Positions 3,047 to 26,798 of a DNA stretch of 64,000 nt are shown here, one piece after another; position 1 is the first letter of the stretch, and each line of letters starts with the position of its first letter. The stretch is taken from positions 1 to 64,000 of the IMG/VR virus record IMGVR_UViG_3300045988_133024; one strand, written 5' to 3'. Below the pieces are notes generated by a model. That model saw nothing but the letters and a program-made list of their open reading frames with translations. It was not told where the DNA came from and did no database searches. The stretch is from a virus. The translations under genes and the position numbers were made by a program.

Positions 3047-3502
3047 ATGAACGGATATACTAATAAAAAAGAAAATGGAAAGAGATACGACAAAGATGAA
3101 AAGAAACAATATGAATATGGGAAATATATGAAGCCGCATGTGTGGGAAATATATTTTGCCGATCTACCTGAAGTAGAAGATAGTCATATATTGTGTGGGT
3201 TACGACCAGTGATTGTGTTTTCAAATGATATATGCAATAGTACGAGTACGGAAATCAATGTTTATCCTCTAACTAAAAGGATAAGAAATTGGATTCCTAC
3301 ACATGTTACTATATGCAGAAATAAAACAAATGGTCTTAAAAGAAACTCTCAAGTGTATTGTGAGCAAGGACGAACAATTCCAAAACGGAATTTGTTAGAA
3401 TACTGGGGACAAGTAACCAACTTATCTCTTCAATTAAAAATTGCACATGCCATTATGATACAGAATGGTATGTTGTCATATATGAATGTGGCAGCGTCAT
3501 AG
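3047..3502 (+). CDS. hypothetical protein (alternative start at 3011)
   Basis: ORF 3011..3502. The internal ATG at 3047 is preceded by 'gaggt'. The 3011 ATG would be nearly leaderless from the promoter at 2969. Confidence 0.5.
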   Translation: MNGYTNKKENGKRYDKDEKKQYEYGKYMKPHVWEIYFADLPEVEDSHILCGLRPVIVFSNDICNSTSTEINVYPLTKRIRNWIPTHVTICRNKTNGLKRNSQVYCEQGRTIPKRNLLEYWGQVTNLSLQLKIAHAIMIQNGMLSYMNVAAS

Positions 3503-3517
3503 AATGGAGAAAGTTTT

Positions 3518-4546
3518 ATGAATAATAAAGAATTTATAGAAAATTATATAAAGACAAAAGTTCCAGAGTCAGCACGACCAGGATGGGAATGGATGTTGGA
3601 TTCTGATCTTGCAAGAGAGGACGAACAGGGCTTAACATACGCTCCAGGAACAATCCAAGAGGCTATGTTAAGGGCAGGAAAAGGGACTGCAAGAAATCGA
3701 ACCATGAATTCTATTGTGAAAAGATATAAACAACTTGTAGATTTATACACCTACGCAAATGAATGTAACTATATAAAATATAATCCATTCAAAAGCGATA
3801 AATTCATTGATCTACAAATCGTTGTGGATATTTATTTTTCCAATCAGGTCAACGTGAACTATGTGTCGAAAGAACAATTGAACGAACTTCTGATAGCTTT
3901 AGCTCTGCGTAAAAAGCCTTTGGATAAAAAAACAAGGTTGCAAATCGTACTATATCTAGTAAGTTTGTATAACGGTATTGATGCTGACGCCTTAAAGGAC
4001 TTAAAGTTTTCTGAAATCGACGAAGAGAAACAAACGATCTCAGGGAAACCAATTGGTAAAAACTTTTTAGATATGATTGCATACTATAAAAACGCAATGG
4101 GTGAGAATATTTATGAAGATCATATAATTATTCCATCATACAAATGTGATGATTTGCAGGAATATAAAAAAGCACAAGACCGTATTGGCTACAATATCAG
4201 ATTTTTGTTTAATACGCTTGGCAAATCGTTAAATTATTATAAAATGTCAAAAAATGACGTTATTAATTCTGGGTTTGTACAGTATTTAAAATCAAGAATG
4301 AGCATTGAATCAATATCTGAACTGTATTATGTTAAACCAAAGGATGGTGTAGCGAGATCATTAAATGCTAAGATGTTCAATGATATTGCGATTGATTTTT
4401 ATTACAAATACTATAAAACATATAGATTGGATGACGTACCGTATAATTTTAGTAGGAGACAAACGGTAATTGGGAAAACGATCAGTTATCTATATCAAGA
4501 TGAAGATTACAAGAATTATCGTGTGCATCAAATCATGACAGAGTAA
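3518..4546 (+). CDS. hypothetical protein
   Basis: 342-aa ORF. RBS 'ggag' 8 nt upstream. Confidence 0.55.
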   Translation: MNNKEFIENYIKTKVPESARPGWEWMLDSDLAREDEQGLTYAPGTIQEAMLRAGKGTARNRTMNSIVKRYKQLVDLYTYANECNYIKYNPFKSDKFIDLQIVVDIYFSNQVNVNYVSKEQLNELLIALALRKKPLDKKTRLQIVLYLVSLYNGIDADALKDLKFSEIDEEKQTISGKPIGKNFLDMIAYYKNAMGENIYEDHIIIPSYKCDDLQEYKKAQDRIGYNIRFLFNTLGKSLNYYKMSKNDVINSGFVQYLKSRMSIESISELYYVKPKDGVARSLNAKMFNDIAIDFYYKYYKTYRLDDVPYNFSRRQTVIGKTISYLYQDEDYKNYRVHQIMTE

Positions 4547-4558
4547 AGGAAGGGATTT

Positions 4559-4930
4559 TTGTATATGGACAATCAAATATTAAACATGTTGGTAGCGAAT
4601 CAATCAAATCAAATGCGTGTTGATGTACTTGATTTACACTCGTCAGAAATGTCATCTTGGTTTCTGAGCGAATATAAGATTCGGGCAGATGATGGGAAGA
4701 TAAAAATCTATGGCAAAGATAAAGATCTTTCATATCATTGGATCGAATTTATTCAAGATGAGAATTTGTTCTCTCATATTAAGCAGGACGACATATTTGA
4801 CATAATCAAATGCCTGCAATTTACATACAAAGAGAGATACAATGTTGGAATAAAAATACAGACAACAAAAAAGAAAGCAGAAGTCTTTGGCAAAACTTCT
4901 ACTTTCACACAAACTAATAATTCTAACTAA
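4559..4930 (+). CDS. hypothetical protein
   Basis: 123-aa ORF immediately downstream of the previous gene. Confidence 0.5.
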   Translation: MYMDNQILNMLVANQSNQMRVDVLDLHSSEMSSWFLSEYKIRADDGKIKIYGKDKDLSYHWIEFIQDENLFSHIKQDDIFDIIKCLQFTYKERYNVGIKIQTTKKKAEVFGKTSTFTQTNNSN

Positions 4931-5065: not shown

Positions 5066-5123
5066 CATGTTCGTCAACATGAAAATTTTTCCAAAAAACT
5101 ACAATTGAATATAGGAGTGATGT

Positions 5124-5774
5124 ATGAAATACATAATTACGAATGAAGAGTTCTATGTAAAAAGAGATCATGCAAGAAATAAATACGTTCGTGATAATCG
5201 TAAGTCTGAAGCTACTCAATTTACCTCCAAACAAGCAAAACATATTTTAGGTTTGAAGCATAAATATACGTGGATGAAAGACGGATTTTATGCCAGAGAA
5301 ATTGAGCTAGGTAAAGTTGGAAAACCTATGGAATCTAGTGAAATAATGCGTAAAGGTAATGGAAATTGCTTTATGGATTGGGAATGCGATAATACATTGA
5401 TCGACAATATAGAGACTGAGGAAAGAGCTATAGTAGGACTTCTAGCATATGACTCAGATCAATTAGGAGAAAAGAAGTTTGAACTAGAACAGGCATTATC
5501 ATATGCCGATTCTGCCAGAAGTGATATTCTTCATGCGATTGAGTTTAAAAAGATTGACGCTGCGAAACGTGCAGTGATTGTTGGGTATCTTAAAACCTTA
5601 CAAGAATTGCACAGAAAAATCAAGAATTGTATTCGATACATAGAAGTGATGCAGAATTGCATGGATAATCAGAGAGATATATGTACTTTGAAGAAAGAAT
5701 TAAAAGATGCAGAACATAAGTCGTATGTCGGCAGGACAAAGTATTATGAGTTGATCCAGAATATAATCGGGTAG
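5124..5774 (+). CDS. hypothetical protein
   Basis: 216-aa ORF. RBS 'aggagtg'. Confidence 0.55.
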   Translation: MKYIITNEEFYVKRDHARNKYVRDNRKSEATQFTSKQAKHILGLKHKYTWMKDGFYAREIELGKVGKPMESSEIMRKGNGNCFMDWECDNTLIDNIETEERAIVGLLAYDSDQLGEKKFELEQALSYADSARSDILHAIEFKKIDAAKRAVIVGYLKTLQELHRKIKNCIRYIEVMQNCMDNQRDICTLKKELKDAEHKSYVGRTKYYELIQNIIG

Positions 5775-22289: not shown

Positions 22290-22601
22290 ATGGGAGCTAA
22301 TATTGAGTTTGCCATTGGCTATGCGATTGGGTTTTGTATCGTTGGAGTGATTGTATTCCTGAGATATGAAAAGAAGTTAGATCGGATGAGGCAGGCAAAT
22401 GTAAATCTGATCTTAGACAAGATGTCGTTTATGTCAGATGTAAGCGATAAAGAAAATGGTACATATAATAAGGAAGAAACTCGTTCAGATGTTAAGGACG
22501 CAGTGAAGTATGCAATGAAGAAAAGTCATCCAGACAATGGTGGTAGTGCAGATGATTTTCGAAAATTTAGAGAGCTTTATGAAGAAATGGAAGGTAAGTA
22601 A
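22290..22601 (+). CDS. membrane-anchored J-domain-like protein
   Basis: N-terminal TM segment. C-terminal 'KYAMKKSHPDNGGSADDFRKFRELYEEM' carries the HPD motif of DnaJ J-domains. Confidence 0.45.
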   Translation: MGANIEFAIGYAIGFCIVGVIVFLRYEKKLDRMRQANVNLILDKMSFMSDVSDKENGTYNKEETRSDVKDAVKYAMKKSHPDNGGSADDFRKFRELYEEMEGK

Positions 22602-22883
22602 ATGCTAAAGGTCGGAGATAGAGTTTATATTTATAGAATGAAGCCAGCGGCTAAAGGAGGTTTGGTTAGAAATAACGACAAAGGTACAATTACTCGCATC
22701 GGAACAGATGAGATTGGTCGCAGATATGGGTATAGATATATGACCGTTAAATTTGACAAACCAGTAAATATCTCTAATCGTGATATTTACTCTTTAGAAT
22801 TTTTTGAAAACAAGGATGATCGTAAGATAGGTAGAATACGAGATACTGGATTCTTACTATATGGTAGAAAATGTGAGGAATAA
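22602..22883 (+). CDS. hypothetical protein
   Basis: 93-aa ORF starting at the upstream stop. Confidence 0.5.
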   Translation: MLKVGDRVYIYRMKPAAKGGLVRNNDKGTITRIGTDEIGRRYGYRYMTVKFDKPVNISNRDIYSLEFFENKDDRKIGRIRDTGFLLYGRKCEE

Positions 22884-22888
22884 GACTT

Positions 22889-23074
22889 ATGAGTAAACAA
22901 GAATCATTGAAGTTTTTGCAAGGTTTGATTGACGAAGTAGAAAATTGGACAAAAGAGGATATCGAGCGAGGTCGGAAATTGATGGAGAAAATGAAAAAAG
23001 AAGAACCAAAAGAAGTTGAAAATAGTGATGGATATTGGGAATTTATAATGCCAGATGGTAAGGAAGTGAAGTAG
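22889..23074 (+). CDS. small hypothetical protein
   Basis: 61-aa ORF immediately upstream of the Cas12f/TnpB-like gene. Confidence 0.45.
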   Translation: MSKQESLKFLQGLIDEVENWTKEDIERGRKLMEKMKKEEPKEVENSDGYWEFIMPDGKEVK

Positions 23075-23076
23075 AT

Positions 23077-24705
23077 ATGGCTAAGAAACAAAATAAAAAT
23101 ACGATGCAGATCAATAGAAAAATTACTTTAATTCCAGTTGCAAGTGACAATGATGGTTGGAAGAAGAAGATGAATACATATCTTGAAAAATTTTATTTTG
23201 ACAAGAAAATTAAAGCCAAAGAAAGACAAATCAAAAATACGAGTAAACCAGAAAGAAAAGAAGAATACAAACAGCAGCTTACAGAATATAAAAAGCAACA
23301 AGAACAGTTCTTAAATGGTGAGCTTGAAGATTATACAAAGCAGATGGTTATGAGTTATACATATGATTTGGTAAGAGACTGTATGGAAAGTGAAGCAAGA
23401 CAGAAGAATTTCATAATGTCTTATATGTTCTCAGAGATGATCAGAGAAAAGGTCTGCTACTTAAAAAACAAGAAAGAAAAGGAAAAATGGGTAAATGACA
23501 ATATCAATGTTGCATTTAGAGTTAAAGGATCACCAAAGGGAAGTATCTTTGACGATGTTGAGATTTATAGTCCATTAAGAGCATTGAGTATTCAGGGATA
23601 TACTCAGGAATTAAAGGGGAGAGTTAAGAAATTCGCCACTGATGGTGGTTTAGACGGGAAGTTGGCAGTCGATAATTATAAATTAGATTCGCCATTTCAT
23701 ATGTCAAAGCAAGGATTTGATATTGTTCATGAATATGAAGACTTGACAGAGCTTAAAAAGAATATTGGTAAATCAAGTTGTGAAATATATGTGAATCTTG
23801 GTAACGGTGGCGTTCCTACATTCGCAAGATTTCAATTAGATTTTGGACACAAAGGCAATCGAGAAGAGTTAATTTCTACAATTACAAAAGTATTTACTGG
23901 CGAATATAAAGTATGTGGAAGTTCAATTCAGATTAATAAAAAGAATAAGATTATATTAAATCTTGGACTTGAAATTCCAAAAAGACTTACTGAATTAGAT
24001 GAAAACACGGTAGTTGGAGTCGATCTTGGGTTAGCAGTTCCAGCTGTATGCTCTTTAAATAATAATCAGTATAAGAAAGAGTATATTGGGGACGGAGAAG
24101 CTTTTGTAAAACAGCGAGGCAAAATTCAAAAAGAAAAACAGAGACTACAAAAAGCATTGAAACTTTCAAAGGGTGGACATGGAAGAAAGAGAAAAATGTT
24201 AGCCTTAGAAAGATTCAAAGAAAGAGAAGCAAATTTTGTAAATACTTATTGTCATAGAATCAGTAAAAAAGTTGTTGAATATGCACTTAAGAATAATGCC
24301 AAATATATCAATATTGAGAATTTAAAAGGATATGATTCTAGTAAATTTATTCTGAGAAATTGGAGTTTCTACCAGCTTCAGCAAGATATTACATATAAAG
24401 CAGAAAGATATGGTATTGAAGTAAGAAAAATCAATCCTGCATTTACTTCTCAAGTATGTAGTTTCTGTGGGTATTGGGAATCTGGACAGAGAATAAATCA
24501 GAAAACTTTTAAATGCGGAAATCCAAATTGTAAGAGTCATAATCTCAAATTTTTCAATGCAGATTATAATGCTGCAAGAAATATTTCAATGTCAACATTG
24601 TTTACAAGTGACAATTATAAGTTTGGAAAAGAATCTTTGCAAAAAGCAGCAGATTATTACGGAATTGATTTAGAAATTGATTCTGAAGACCAAGAAATTG
24701 CTTAA
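23077..24705 (+). CDS. Cas12f/TnpB-like RNA-guided nuclease candidate (split RuvC domain plus zinc finger)
   Basis: RuvC-I 'VVGVDLGLAVPAV'. RuvC-II 'AKYINIENLKGY'. Zinc finger 'CSFCGYW..CGNPNCKSH'. RuvC-III 'NADYNAARNI'. At 542 aa with the D/E/D spacing, it resembles miniature type V effectors. No tnpA or cas1/cas2 is adjacent. Confidence 0.75.
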   Translation: MAKKQNKNTMQINRKITLIPVASDNDGWKKKMNTYLEKFYFDKKIKAKERQIKNTSKPERKEEYKQQLTEYKKQQEQFLNGELEDYTKQMVMSYTYDLVRDCMESEARQKNFIMSYMFSEMIREKVCYLKNKKEKEKWVNDNINVAFRVKGSPKGSIFDDVEIYSPLRALSIQGYTQELKGRVKKFATDGGLDGKLAVDNYKLDSPFHMSKQGFDIVHEYEDLTELKKNIGKSSCEIYVNLGNGGVPTFARFQLDFGHKGNREELISTITKVFTGEYKVCGSSIQINKKNKIILNLGLEIPKRLTELDENTVVGVDLGLAVPAVCSLNNNQYKKEYIGDGEAFVKQRGKIQKEKQRLQKALKLSKGGHGRKRKMLALERFKEREANFVNTYCHRISKKVVEYALKNNAKYINIENLKGYDSSKFILRNWSFYQLQQDITYKAERYGIEVRKINPAFTSQVCSFCGYWESGQRINQKTFKCGNPNCKSHNLKFFNADYNAARNISMSTLFTSDNYKFGKESLQKAADYYGIDLEIDSEDQEIA

Positions 24706-24714
24706 ATTATCGAC

Positions 24715-24835
24715 TGTATATGGCATGTTTTGGATGAGGTGCCGAACTTCGTCGATCATAGAATATATGATTATGCCAAAAGTGAGGTGTGAATAGAAAT
24801 GCACTCACTAAAATTTGTGTAACTAGACAGAACGT
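24715..24835 (+). ncRNA. structured element A1 (candidate tracrRNA/omegaRNA-like scaffold) with a degenerate CRISPR half-repeat at its 3' end
   Basis: Starts 10 nt after the nuclease stop. Begins with 'tgtatatggcatgtttt', which is closed by '...ttatgcca' (ggcat/atgcc inverted repeat). Contains the hairpin agtgag-[17 nt]-ctcact. The tail 'taactagacagaac' resembles the 3' end of the array repeat ('taacataggtacagaac'). Confidence 0.4.
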
Positions 24836-24895
24836 AAAGTTTTGCATTGTATACATAATAAAGATTTGAGGTTTGAGAATTATTAAAAATTACAC

Positions 24896-24920
24896 AGATA
24901 CAAAACGGTTCTAGTGATCA
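24896..24920. repeat. direct repeat B1, 'agatacaaaacggttctagtgatca'
   Basis: Matches B2 at 22 of 25 positions. The two copies are 101 bp apart. Confidence 0.5.
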
Positions 24921-24996
24921 ATTCAAACATTCATAAGTTTTAGAATCATTAGAAATTATATAATTATAAAATATAGTATTAAATAAACATTTATGT

Positions 24997-25020
24997 AGAT
25001 ACAAAATGATTCTAGTGTCT
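24997..25020. repeat. direct repeat B2, 'agatacaaaatgattctagtgtct'
   Basis: Second copy of B1. The two copies flank a ~75-bp AT-rich segment containing the palindrome aattatataatt. Confidence 0.5.
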
Positions 25021-25069
25021 AAGACAATATATACAGGTTGATAAAACCTGTTATAACTACACAAATTAT

Positions 25070-25172
25070 TGTGTATGGCATGTTTCGAGAAATATCATCA
25101 CCAATATGATATTTCTGGTCATGGAGTATCATGACTATGCCAAAAGTGAGATTATATGATACTCACTAAAAT
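25070..25172 (+). ncRNA. structured element A2 (second copy of A1, 355 bp downstream), immediately upstream of the mini-array
   Basis: Shares 'tgtgtatggcatgttt...atgactatgccaaaagtgag-[11 nt]-ctcactaaaat' with A1. The internal perfect hairpin is agaaatatcat/atgatatttct. The loop sequences are variable. Confidence 0.4.
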
Positions 25173-25194
25173 GTATGTTAATTAAATATTCGAG

Positions 25195-25363
25195 GCTTAA
25201 GACCTATTAAATTTAACATAGGTACAGAACACATGATGCAGTATTTTTTTGAATCAATTATGTTTAAGACCTATCAGATTTAACATAGGTACAGAACTTG
25301 GCACATTACTGGATTGGCTAACCGATAGCACAAGACCTATCAAATTTAACAAAAATTAAAGGA
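25195..25363 (+). CRISPR. mini CRISPR-like array: 36-bp repeats at 25195-25230 and 25262-25297, plus a degenerate terminal repeat (~25328-25363); spacers of 31 and 30 nt
   Basis: R1 is gcttaagacctattaaatttaacataggtacagaac. R2 is gtttaagacctatcagatttaacataggtacagaac (3 mismatches). R3 keeps aagacctatcaaatttaac and then diverges. The period is 66-67 bp. The repeats carry an internal hairpin cctat/atagg. Confidence 0.55.
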
Positions 25364-25545
25364 AATTAAACAGAAAATGAAAACAAGGAAACAACGTAAA
25401 CAGGAAATAAAACGATTCTTTGATCGGCTGAGTCCTGAGGAATTGGACAAGCTATTAGAAAGAAATGGAATTAATGATAAAGAGTCTAATGAGGCTCTTT
25501 CATATAGAACTATAAAAGAAGAAATTGAGAAAGGAGAGACCTGAT

Positions 25546-25854
25546 ATGGCATATAAGTTGTATATTGAAACACAAAAGGAATATACGGGATGTAGTCCAC
25601 AGCTGGAGGTATTAAATGTAAGAGATTGCAAACATGTCATTGCATCATTAGATCATTACCCACCTACAGCTGAGGAGGTTAAGAAAGCAGCTTGTATATT
25701 AATCGGACAATGTATTTACAAACGTATTTGTAGCATGGAAATCGACATTGATATTTTGGATATGCATTGTTCTCCGCCAAAAGAAATGACGATTGAAGAA
25801 ATCGAAAAAGAACTCGGTCATAAAGTAAAAATTGTAGAGGAGAAAGAAAAATGA
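25546..25854 (+). CDS. hypothetical protein (start trimmed from 25525 to the ATG with RBS 'aaaggagag')
   Basis: 102-aa ORF. A 55-aa ORF at 25377..25544 directly after the array is also possible but has only a weak RBS. Confidence 0.5.
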   Translation: MAYKLYIETQKEYTGCSPQLEVLNVRDCKHVIASLDHYPPTAEEVKKAACILIGQCIYKRICSMEIDIDILDMHCSPPKEMTIEEIEKELGHKVKIVEEKEK

Positions 25855-26798
25855 AATGTTTTTATCATGTTGATCAAGACGGGATTGTGTCTGGATTCTA
25901 CGTCAGAAAAGCTTGTGAACAACGAGGCTTAGAGTTTGAACCAGAAGACTTCCGAAAAATTAATTACGGTATGAAATTCCCGTTTCATGACATTGAACAG
26001 GATGAATTCGTATTTATTGTAGACTACAGCATTGAGCCAGAAGAAATGTGGCAACTGCTTAGTATTACAAAGAATGTATTTTGGATTGATCATCATCAGT
26101 CTACGATTGAAGCGTATAAAGATTTCAAATGTGATGTGAAAGGAATTCGAATCACTGGAGCAGGTATTTCAGGAGCGAATTTGACATGGTTGTACTTTAA
26201 AGAAATGTGTGATGACAATTGGAAGCAAGTTGACAAAACAGATTATAAAAGAGGCAAAGCTTTGCTTGGTAGATATGAAATAGGAATCCCTATGTTGGCA
26301 AAATATACAGCAATGTGGGATACATTTTATTTTGGTGCAACGTCAAAAAAATTCATAAAAGCATTTCACTATGCATTTGAATCGTGTGATTTTGATGCAT
26401 TAAGTCCATTGCTAAACACGTTAAATGAAGATCAAGGAATTTATGAAGCAACAAAAATTATTGGTGATATGATAACAGATGGCTTATCAATTATTGAGTA
26501 TTTAGCAGCAAATGCAGAACAGTATCTCAGAGCATATGGTTTTGAAACCACCTTTGAAGGTCATAAAGTCTATGCAGTCAATCGAGCATTAATCAATTCT
26601 GATTTCTTCGAATCTATTGATGGTTCTAAATACGATATGTTTATTGGTTTCTCTTTTAACGGAAGTATGTGGGAATATCAGTTACGATCTGCAGAACAAG
26701 ATAAGGTTAATGTATATGAGCTTGCTGTGAAATATGGTGGTGGCGGTCATCCAAATGCAGCTGGATTTAGGAGTGATAAATATGTGTTAGGGGTGTGA
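25851..26798 (+). CDS. stand-alone DHH-DHHA1 phosphoesterase (NrnA / cyclic-nucleotide phosphodiesterase-like)
   Basis: DHH motif I 'YHVDQDGIVSG'. 'IDHHQS'. C-terminal DHHA1 motif 'GGGGHPNAAGF'. Confidence 0.55.
   Translation: MKCFYHVDQDGIVSGFYVRKACEQRGLEFEPEDFRKINYGMKFPFHDIEQDEFVFIVDYSIEPEEMWQLLSITKNVFWIDHHQSTIEAYKDFKCDVKGIRITGAGISGANLTWLYFKEMCDDNWKQVDKTDYKRGKALLGRYEIGIPMLAKYTAMWDTFYFGATSKKFIKAFHYAFESCDFDALSPLLNTLNEDQGIYEATKIIGDMITDGLSIIEYLAANAEQYLRAYGFETTFEGHKVYAVNRALINSDFFESIDGSKYDMFIGFSFNGSMWEYQLRSAEQDKVNVYELAVKYGGGGHPNAAGFRSDKYVLGV

Follow-up and report, generated by a model that had tools for sequence, protein, structure and literature searches.

The 64,000-nt window analysed here, i.e., the whole stretch comprising positions 1 to 64,000 of the IMG/VR virus record IMGVR_UViG_3300045988_133024, carries a gene for a Cas12f-like nuclease and, downstream of it on the same (+) strand, two structured direct repeats, A1 and A2, each of which is followed by a short CRISPR array. 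A preliminary description of A1 and A2 as candidate scaffolds offered three alternatives, namely two scaffold RNAs that each serve their own guide, a trans-activating CRISPR RNA (tracrRNA) accompanied by a duplicated pseudo-copy, or single guides resembling the omegaRNAs of transposon nucleases. The first of these is the one we favor; with a probability of roughly 0.87, A1 and A2 both encode tracrRNAs of a type V-F (Cas12f) system carried by the phage, each heading a cassette composed of a tracrRNA, a short leader, and a mini-array, and each having its own guide or guides with a matched anti-repeat and pseudoknot loop. The tracrRNA identity is proposed because the stems covary, the tail of each scaffold complements the adjacent repeat, and the pseudoknot pairing covaries as well; transcription, processing, assembly of a ribonucleoprotein, and cleavage are inferred.

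The nuclease gene and two paralogous structured RNAs

The nuclease gene and the parts of A1 and A2 are as follows.

23077..24705, + strand: Cas12f-like nuclease gene, 542 amino acids (PADLOC, Pfam, NCBIfam, solved structures)
24715..24822, + strand: A1, putative tracrRNA (fold, covariance model, covariation, anti-repeat, pseudoknot complementarity)
24721-26 / 24773-78, + strand: A1 stem 1, UGGCAU with AUGCCA
24727-32, + strand: A1 pseudoknot loop GUUUUG, complementary to the repeat end at 24901-06
24733-53, + strand: A1 hairpin 1a, 8 bp
24754-72, + strand: A1 hairpin 1b
24781-24809, + strand: A1 stem 2 with a bulged A
24813-22, + strand: A1 anti-repeat AUUUGUGUAA, which pairs with UUACACAGAU at 24890-99
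25070..25188, + strand: A2, putative chimeric tracrRNA (fold, covariance model, comparison with modules of the related phage L002)
25076-81 / 25137-42, + strand: A2 stem 1
25082-87, + strand: A2 pseudoknot loop GUUUCG
25088-25116, + strand: A2 hairpin 1a, perfect 11 bp (25088-98 / 25106-16)
25118-35, + strand: A2 hairpin 1b
25145-67, + strand: A2 stem 2
25174-88, + strand: A2 anti-repeat

The 542-aa nuclease matched the PADLOC profiles Cas12u3 (6.8e-96) and Cas12f (3.4e-92) over nearly the whole profile, the Pfam families Cas12f1-like_TNB and OrfB_IS605, and the NCBIfam model guided_TnpB (2.8e-44); its nearest solved structures are 8hr5 and, from the Al3Cas12f study, 9nzo and 9nzr (~1e-63). 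In alignments with 8hr5 and 9nzo, the RuvC triad is intact (D316, E414, and D496, in GVD316LG, NIE414NL, and NAD496YNAARN, respectively) and a CxxC...CxxxxC zinc finger (CSFC...CGNPNC) is kept, so that, judged from its sequence, the gene adjoining A1 is a Cas12f with an intact RuvC triad. The nuclease family has >1000 members at E <= 1e-20, many of them on contigs of 90-230 kb, and the position of the gene is constant across several phages. No cas9, cas1, cas2, or csn2 was among the PADLOC families listed (25 of 73 matched) for the 80 open reading frames (ORFs) of the window, and none was found among the ten ORFs neighbouring the nuclease; a small Cas2 or Csn2 could have escaped both searches.

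Minimum-free-energy folding gave one architecture for A1 and A2 on the + strand (−31.5 kcal/mol, z = −3.55, for A1 and −31.6 kcal/mol, z = −3.34, for A2), in agreement with the preliminary description of two structured direct repeats at these positions. The A1 minus strand gives a poor fold (−15.9 kcal/mol, z = −1.41), and some helix pairs of A1 and A2 are G-U pairs, which are possible on the + strand only. In both elements, stem 1 (UGGCAU/AUGCCA) encloses two inner hairpins and is followed by the linker AAAAG, stem 2, an A-run, and an unpaired tail. The proposed pairing between the 5' box and an ATGCC approximately 50 nt downstream was recovered as stem 1 in both elements (24721-26/24773-78 and 25076-81/25137-42), and the perfect 11-bp hairpin of A2 has an equivalent in A1, i.e., the 8-bp inner hairpin at 24733-53. 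Stem 2 (AGUGAG...CUCACU, which contains a bulged A and is extended to a variable degree at its distal end) had been described as a pair of identical stems with different loops and hence as a compensatory pattern; the conserved RNA structure that was deduced from it holds, but identical stems represent conservation, not compensation. A repeat finder further detected the common 5' box (24715-24730 and 25070-25085, 94% identical) as well as the blocks YATGCCAAAAGTGAG / ATGCCAAAAGTGAG and ACTCACTAAAAT common to A1 and A2. A1 begins 9 nt, not 10 nt, past the nuclease stop codon (TAA, 24703-05). A1 and A2 are paralogous structured RNAs encoded downstream of the Cas12f gene on the + strand.

Covariation and pairing with the adjacent repeats

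For comparison, related loci were collected from IMG/VR (fifteen), other assemblies (seven), and bacterial genomes (three, i.e., Clostridium sp. AF37-5, Anaerotignum sp. MSJ-24, and a Pseudobutyrivibrio ruminis metagenome-assembled genome); a blastn search of the locus against 50,697 GenBank phages found no match. Every related locus has an A1/A2-like scaffold, a short tail, and a mini-array of 1-4 repeats beside the nuclease gene, usually in multiple units. A covariance model built from 15 homologous long-form copies found only two sites in the 64-kb window, at 24715-24825 (99 bits) and 25070-25183 (103 bits), and a total of 53 copies in 24 sources, with 53 of the 53 on the strand of the nuclease gene; these include four copies each in L001, L002, and L004, three in L018, and three in L006-L010, one of which lies upstream of the nuclease gene. 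Short-form relatives lack the two hairpins in the loop of stem 1.

Consistent with the outcome anticipated in the preliminary description, structure prediction and comparison across these related phages showed a shared fold with covarying stems. In a MAFFT alignment of the 15 copies, made with no structure fitting, 92.6% of the cells were paired, compared to 32-46% in slid controls, and 12 of the 24 pairs showed compensatory change; in the model-fitted alignment of 45 distinct copies, these values were 95.8%, 31-44%, and 20 of 24, respectively. In neither alignment did any of 500 shuffles reach the observed covariation score. RNAalifold independently predicted stem 1 and both inner hairpins. 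Stem 1, both inner hairpins, and the distal portion of stem 2 hold the compensatory changes; in proximal stem 2, the sequence of the 6 bp is conserved, so that they carry little weight for or against structure.

These data also bear on whether A1 and A2 could be repeats that act at the DNA level (e.g., ends of insertion sequences or attachment or recombination sites) or regulatory RNA motifs outside CRISPR. While both are direct repeats in a phage genome, in which recombination between cassettes has clearly occurred, the compensatory changes, the G-U pairs, and the strand-asymmetric folding point to RNA, and the repeat finder detected no inverted terminal repeats at A1 or A2. The elements are moreover found only beside the nuclease gene and always on its strand, and their sequence co-varies with that of the adjacent CRISPR repeat. 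The possibility of transposon ends or attachment sites, which the preliminary description had considered, is thus contradicted by both the lack of inverted terminal repeats and the covariation, and we regard such explanations as highly improbable.

Pairing between scaffold and repeat provides the link to CRISPR. The A1 anti-repeat can form 10 bp, including one G-U pair, with its repeat. Across 31 distinct cassettes, the tail pairs with its own first repeat at a mean of −15.7 kcal/mol, compared to −10.2 kcal/mol for non-cognate combinations, a difference not reached in any of 10000 permutations. In addition, a 6-nt segment immediately after the 5' strand of stem 1 complements the final 6 nt of the cognate repeat, directly before the spacer; in A1, GUUUUG (24727-32) can pair with CAAAAC (24901-06). 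At least 8 classes of loop and repeat end were distinguished (GUUUUG:CAAAAC, GUUUCG:CGAAAC, GUUCUG:CAGAAC, UUCAG:CUGAA, UUUGG:CCAAA, CCUUU:AAAGG, UUUGA:UCAAA, and UUUUA:UAAAA), and the observed match between loop and repeat end was reached in 0 of 20000 permutations; since the weakest model matches were misaligned in stem 1, a hand-checked table was used for this test. A pseudoknot between the stem-1 loop and the repeat end would account for this complementarity.

A mechanism that would use these pairings can be outlined. The locus would be transcribed from the + strand, probably jointly with the nuclease gene, and each scaffold would fold into stem 1, which closes the two extra hairpins, and stem 2. 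The single-stranded anti-repeat tail would pair with the middle of a repeat of its own array, and the final 6 nt of this repeat would be bound by the hexamer that succeeds the 5' strand of stem 1, forming a pseudoknot that would position the spacer; for the first repeat, these pairings would be possible within one transcript, giving a natural single guide. The nuclease, which is presumably dimeric as are other Cas12f enzymes, would bind the guide RNA and cut DNA that matches approximately 20 nt of the spacer beside a 5'-TTTR protospacer adjacent motif (PAM), with competing phages as the likely targets.

Cassettes, leaders, and spacer targets

The first cassette and the region that separates it from the second comprise the following features.

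24823..24870, + strand: leader of the A1 array, kept in L001, L002, L016, L018, and L028-L032
24828-33, + strand: CAGAAC, first arm of the leader hairpin CAGAAC / GUUUUG
24834-63, + strand: conserved 30-nt leader stretch, no target found
24864-70, + strand: leader end ATTTGAG, equal to the type II-A group 1 motif
24871..24972, + strand: A1 mini-array (repeat finder, junction analysis)
24871-24906, + strand: full repeat of 36 nt
24907-24936, + strand: spacer, matching L024 118-147 at 29 of 30 positions
24937-24972, + strand: degenerate terminal repeat
24973..25069, + strand: inter-cassette region, conserved in L001 and L002, containing repeat-like remnants as well as a hairpin (25033-25051)

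The leader bears on the reading of A1 and A2 as omegaRNAs, or right-end element RNAs (reRNAs), of a TnpB-like transposon nuclease, i.e., as single guides composed of a scaffold and a fixed guide. The CAGAAC after A1 can pair with GUUUUG and is followed by exactly 30 conserved nt; the nuclease also matches TnpB models, a core comprising stem 1, pseudoknot, and stem 2 also occurs in TnpB reRNA, and in L005 and L010 an anti-repeat is fused straight to the 3' end of a repeat and a spacer. However, the 30 nt are conserved between phages whose nucleases are only ~60% identical, and no target was found for them in the window or in viral contigs; because of this conservation and lack of a target, we assign the CAGAAC and the 30-nt stretch downstream of it to a conserved leader and not to a guide. 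The "degenerate half-repeat" that the preliminary description placed after A1 belongs to this leader, and the full repeat at 24871-24906 had been overlooked. Furthermore, the scaffolds start past the stop codon, show no overlap with the 3' gene end, and have no transposon end; they number 2-4 per gene, with A2 and the extra cassettes lying far from gene ends, and they are followed by CRISPR repeats with variable spacers, to which their tails are complementary. PADLOC also places the protein in Cas12f/V-U3 (6.8e-96), and the gene keeps its position in several phages. Overall, we consider omegaRNA-like single guides to be very unlikely.

The leader hairpin has the form CAGRAY-GUAAA-GUUUUG; CAGAAC at 24828-33 is kept as CAGRAY in related leaders (UAAAGC in L001). 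This arm resembles the 3' end of a repeat and is always able to pair with GUUUUG, either that 5 nt downstream or that of the pseudoknot loop, and the hairpin may be a cis mimic, a sequestering structure, or a promoter. A conserved AU-rich stretch after the leader hairpin can pair with the anti-repeat. Two further roles were considered for parts of the leader and rejected. As a fused, fixed, and possibly autoregulatory guide, 24828-24863 lacked any PAM-flanked seed match in the window, and its matches in viral contigs were all copies of this leader from related phages; ATTTGAG, considered as a -35 box or as a partner of the 3' strand of stem 2, showed no consistent spacing or covariation by eye. 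In the inter-cassette region, the remnants include ..TTTATGTAGATACAAAAT and then GATTCTAGTG, the latter echoing the start of the true spacer; a pseudo-spacer at 25008 had no match in viral contigs.

The A1 spacer, which is the same in module 1 of L002, has a 29/30 match in L024, another viral contig of the same metagenome, with a 5' flank of TTTA. The matched site lies at the junction of a truncated tRNA-Leu-like fragment and the integrase end of this temperate phage, and the protospacer probably covers the core of its attachment site. The module 1 spacer of L001 matches a second site in L024 (26/30) and spacer 1 of module 1 of L018 matches one inside the L024 integrase ORF (27/30). The protospacers at 118-147, 925-954, and 10682-10711 of L024 correspond to module-1 spacers that differ among the three relatives carrying them (window/L002, L018, and L001). 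The module 2 spacer of L002 (6177-6206) matches the cas12f gene of L018 (4190-4218; 27/30) and those of L013-L015 (~4622-4651; 24/30), in both cases with a TTTG flank, and had no match in the nuclease gene of L002 itself. The 5' flanks of four independent protospacers, a small sample, are TTTA, TTTG, TTTG, and TTGT, i.e., TTTR in three of four; these flanks fit a PAM of the Cas12f type and a CRISPR RNA (crRNA) read as repeat and then spacer on the + strand. None of the three window spacers had a target in the window with up to 3 mismatches, and spacers turn over between near-identical phages.

The second array has the following features.

25188..25351, + strand: array of A2, with leader end ATTCGAG at 25188-94
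25195-25230, + strand: first repeat
25231-25261, + strand: first spacer
25262-25297, + strand: second repeat
25298-25327, + strand: second spacer
25328-25351, + strand: truncated repeat

Comparison of window 25070-25230 with L002 5995-6108 and 6548-6700 indicates that this cassette is composite. Within the near-identical phage L002, module 2 matches the A2 scaffold at 99% identity and module 4 matches the A2 tail and first repeat at 88.5%, and the crossover lies within a shared UAUGUU; approximately 540 nt of the sister phages L001 and L002, comprising module 3 and the scaffold of module 4, are deleted in the window. By this comparison, the A2 cassette is a recombinant, and A2, not A1, is the irregular copy.

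A number of observations weigh against our interpretation of A1 and A2 as tracrRNAs. A match to a curated RNA family, as the preliminary description had envisaged, was not obtained; Rfam 15, searched over 22500-26500 at E up to 10, gave only chance-level matches and no Cas12f tracrRNA family. A promoter scan was uninformative (8 promoter-like sites compared to 6.2 expected), and both scaffold forms (~108-119 nt here and ~65-70 nt in the short-form relatives, according to the model matches) are shorter than every validated Cas12f tracrRNA compared. The model-fitted alignment is biased toward the structure to which it was fitted, and the pseudoknot table, which was curated by hand, may carry a bias of its own. 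With regard to A2 specifically, the two spacers of its array had no protospacer in viral or metagenome contigs, its pairing with its own repeat (−9.0 kcal/mol, rank 11 of 31) is the second weakest duplex in the set of 31, and its loop GUUUCG faces the CAGAAC of the array with one mismatch and one G-U pair. A terminator scan, likewise uninformative, gave one terminator-like hairpin, in the inter-cassette region, that was assigned to the minus strand.

The A2 irregularities raise the question of whether only one of A1 and A2 is a working tracrRNA and the other a decaying duplicate. In addition to the recombinant nature of A2, its mismatched pseudoknot, and its weak anti-repeat duplex, the A1 array consists of a single intact repeat and one spacer. 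By contrast, all helices are kept in both scaffolds, both of which score ~100 bits, and multiple cassettes are usual in relatives (four in L001 and L002, three in L018). A1 as a pseudo-copy, as in the second alternative above, is at odds with its intact structure, its conservation in relatives, and a spacer with a genuine protospacer and a TTTA PAM. The A2 pseudoknot mismatch arises because the scaffold and the tail with its array come from different cassettes, and the 99% identity of the A2 scaffold to the intact module 2 of L002 points to recent recombination, not decay. We thus judge a non-functional duplicate to be unlikely; an impaired chimeric A2 is nevertheless the sole rival with real weight, and A2 may work less well than A1 because of its pseudoknot mismatch and weak repeat duplex. 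A repaired counterpart of A2 would have the loop GUUCUG and the tail AAUCUAUG.

In nearly all cassettes, the leader ends in ATTTGAG directly before a 36-nt repeat that starts with GTTT, and spacers are 29-31 nt long (the junction logo is based on 40 distinct junctions); the window junctions are ATTTGAG|GTTTGAG (24864-70) and ATTCGAG|GCTTAAG (25188-94). The cassette repeats are identical at 20-27 of 36 positions (55-75%; z of 1.8-5.9 compared to shuffles) to those of Streptococcus thermophilus CRISPR1, the sequence of which was confirmed in the literature, and of Streptococcus pyogenes. The ATTTGAG junction defines group 1 type II-A arrays, in which it is required for spacer integration (Van Orden et al. 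2017, PMC5382924); xxxCGAG is an alternative form of the type II-A leader end. Type II-A arrays share with the phage arrays the ATTTGAG|GTTT junction, 36-nt repeats with an initial G and, in most cases, a terminal C, and 30-nt spacers; by contrast, no cas9, cas1, cas2, or csn2 was found near the phage locus, its RNA partner is a tracrRNA of the Cas12f type, the phage guide is read as repeat and spacer with a 5' PAM, and some cassettes end in AAAGG instead of C. L013 and L014 share a leader-distal spacer and differ in the leader-proximal one, which suggests polarised acquisition. The II-A-like junction could reflect loading of the arrays by the II-A machinery of the host, descent from II-A arrays, or a motif common to this V-F clade. 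A more specific proposal, which we hold to be doubtful, is that the cassettes are exchangeable guide cartridges in which anti-repeat, loop, and repeat co-evolve to give partly orthogonal channels, and that their arrays are loaded by host type II-A Cas1-Cas2-Csn2-Cas9 or, alternatively, are captured host II-A arrays to which a duplicated tracrRNA was retuned. If this were true, one array could serve both Cas9 (through spacer and downstream repeat) and Cas12f (through upstream repeat and spacer); in any case, the II-A-style junction makes it testable how phage CRISPR systems without Cas1-Cas2 acquire spacers.

Further observations concern the relatives and the surroundings of the locus. A same-strand cassette upstream of the nuclease gene is present in many relatives (L004 3776-3840; L005-L015 ~3240-3530; L003 3527-3593; L019 2663-2729; L025 7770-7837); it has a different insert in stem 1, and CUGAAC (loop UUCAG) forms the end of its repeats. 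In L021, stem 2 of the scaffold at 4658-4763 carries an insertion of ~80 nt between the conserved AGUGAGGG and CUACUCACU, and a further scaffold with a single repeat-like end (768-860) lies ~2 kb upstream of the nuclease gene, beside a tRNA gene. The 64-kb window itself has 80 ORFs, nearly all on the + strand, and provides as phage context a replication and metabolism module, with phage-type genes for replication and nucleotide metabolism; encoded are a DNA polymerase, an NAD-dependent ligase, NrdD/NrdG, a RecD-like helicase, several nicotinamide phosphoribosyltransferases and NAD synthetases, two sigma factors, and methyltransferases. The window has zero tRNA genes.

Comparison with known systems

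Both Cas12f tracrRNAs, which are encoded between cas12f and the array (PMC8548392), and phage-borne V-F systems without adaptation genes are already known, and new V-F subtypes have been reported in phages (PMC11656645; Al-Shayeb et al. 2020, PMC7162821). In the full texts searched and one review, a scope outside of which most subscription journals fall, we found no description of 2-4 tandem cassettes of tracrRNA and mini-array per nuclease and none of anti-repeat/loop/repeat co-evolution, very short scaffolds, or a leader of the II-A type. Among the nucleases in wide use for genome editing, Cas12f is the smallest, and the length of its guide RNA is a limitation; the phage family described here offers naturally compact scaffolds, and its dozens of variants map the pairings that are required (i.e., stem 1, pseudoknot, and anti-repeat). 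Tandem cassettes with differing sets of repeat, anti-repeat, and pseudoknot suggest natural multiplexing on one nuclease, which could be copied. The loci also show conflict between phages of gut Clostridia, including one spacer directed against the cas12f gene of a rival.

Mini-arrays of viruses and phage CRISPR systems (PMC11656645; PMC7162821) resemble the present locus in having very short arrays with spacers against competing viruses and no cas1, cas2, or cas4. They differ in that here each mini-array has its own co-evolving tracrRNA and the phage supplies the effector, and the cassettes are described in neither of these studies. Cas12p, the "Cas12 hacker" (bioRxiv 10.1101/2025.01.20.633832), is likewise a miniature Cas12 of 500-700 aa that is encoded by phages and relies on a tracrRNA; compared by description only, it has a GTN PAM and needs host thioredoxin, whereas the nuclease described here belongs to Cas12f/V-U3 and its protospacers have TTTR flanks.

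The omegaRNAs of TnpB (IS200/IS605) share a homologous nuclease fold and RNA core with the present system, stem 1, pseudoknot, and stem 2 being the conserved core of Cas12f1 and TnpB RNAs (PMC12255294). In contrast to omegaRNAs, the phage scaffolds have no overlap with the 3' end of the gene and no transposon ends, and their guides come from separate repeat-spacer units, the spacers of which turn over. A form resembling an omegaRNA occurs in L005 and L010 (~5067-5125), where an anti-repeat is fused to the last ~15 nt of a repeat and followed by a 30-nt spacer and a normal repeat, with no ATTTGAG leader and no first repeat, in the manner of a natural single guide.

The V-F1 systems (Cn, Un1, Sp, As, Os, and Rh) also have the tracrRNA between cas12f and the array and conserve the core, but their tracrRNAs are single, 110-170 nt long or more, and have stems 3-5, which A1 and A2 lack. 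The PAM of CnCas12f1 is C-rich, whereas the flanks of the phage protospacers are TTTR. CnCas12f1 (PDB 8hr5) is the best solved protein match of the phage nuclease (1e-63, residues 175-511).

Al3Cas12f / Cas12f-MG119 (PMC13186708; PDB 9nzo, 9nzr) is joint closest among solved proteins (1.8e-63) and provides a detailed RNA parallel. The Al3Cas12f tracrRNA consists of GGGCGC-GUUGGA-GCGCC, UUAGU, UUGAGG...ACACUCAA, AAAA, and UUCACUUGA, and its crRNA is UCAAGUGAA-UA-UCCAAC (Guan et al. 2026, PMC13186708); complementarity between loop and repeat end is present in the validated Cas12f guides of Al3 (GUUGGA:UCCAAC), As (GUUCA:UGAAC), and MG119-2 (UUUUAU:AUAAAA), and likewise in RhCas12f. The phage scaffolds have the same succession of stem 1, linker, stem 2 with a bulged A before CUC, A-run, and anti-repeat, with no stems 3 or 4, the same complementarity between the stem-1 loop and the last 6 nt of the repeat, the same geometry of a duplex, a 1-2 nt linker, and a 6-nt handle, and a T-rich PAM. 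They differ in having two extra hairpins in stem 1 and no 5' stem 0 and in being shorter, and the N-terminal part of the phage nuclease is different and longer, with residues 1-250 aligning poorly. Finally, Al3Cas12f/MG119 combines one tracrRNA with one array, whereas the present system is carried by phages and has 2-4 cassettes per nuclease.

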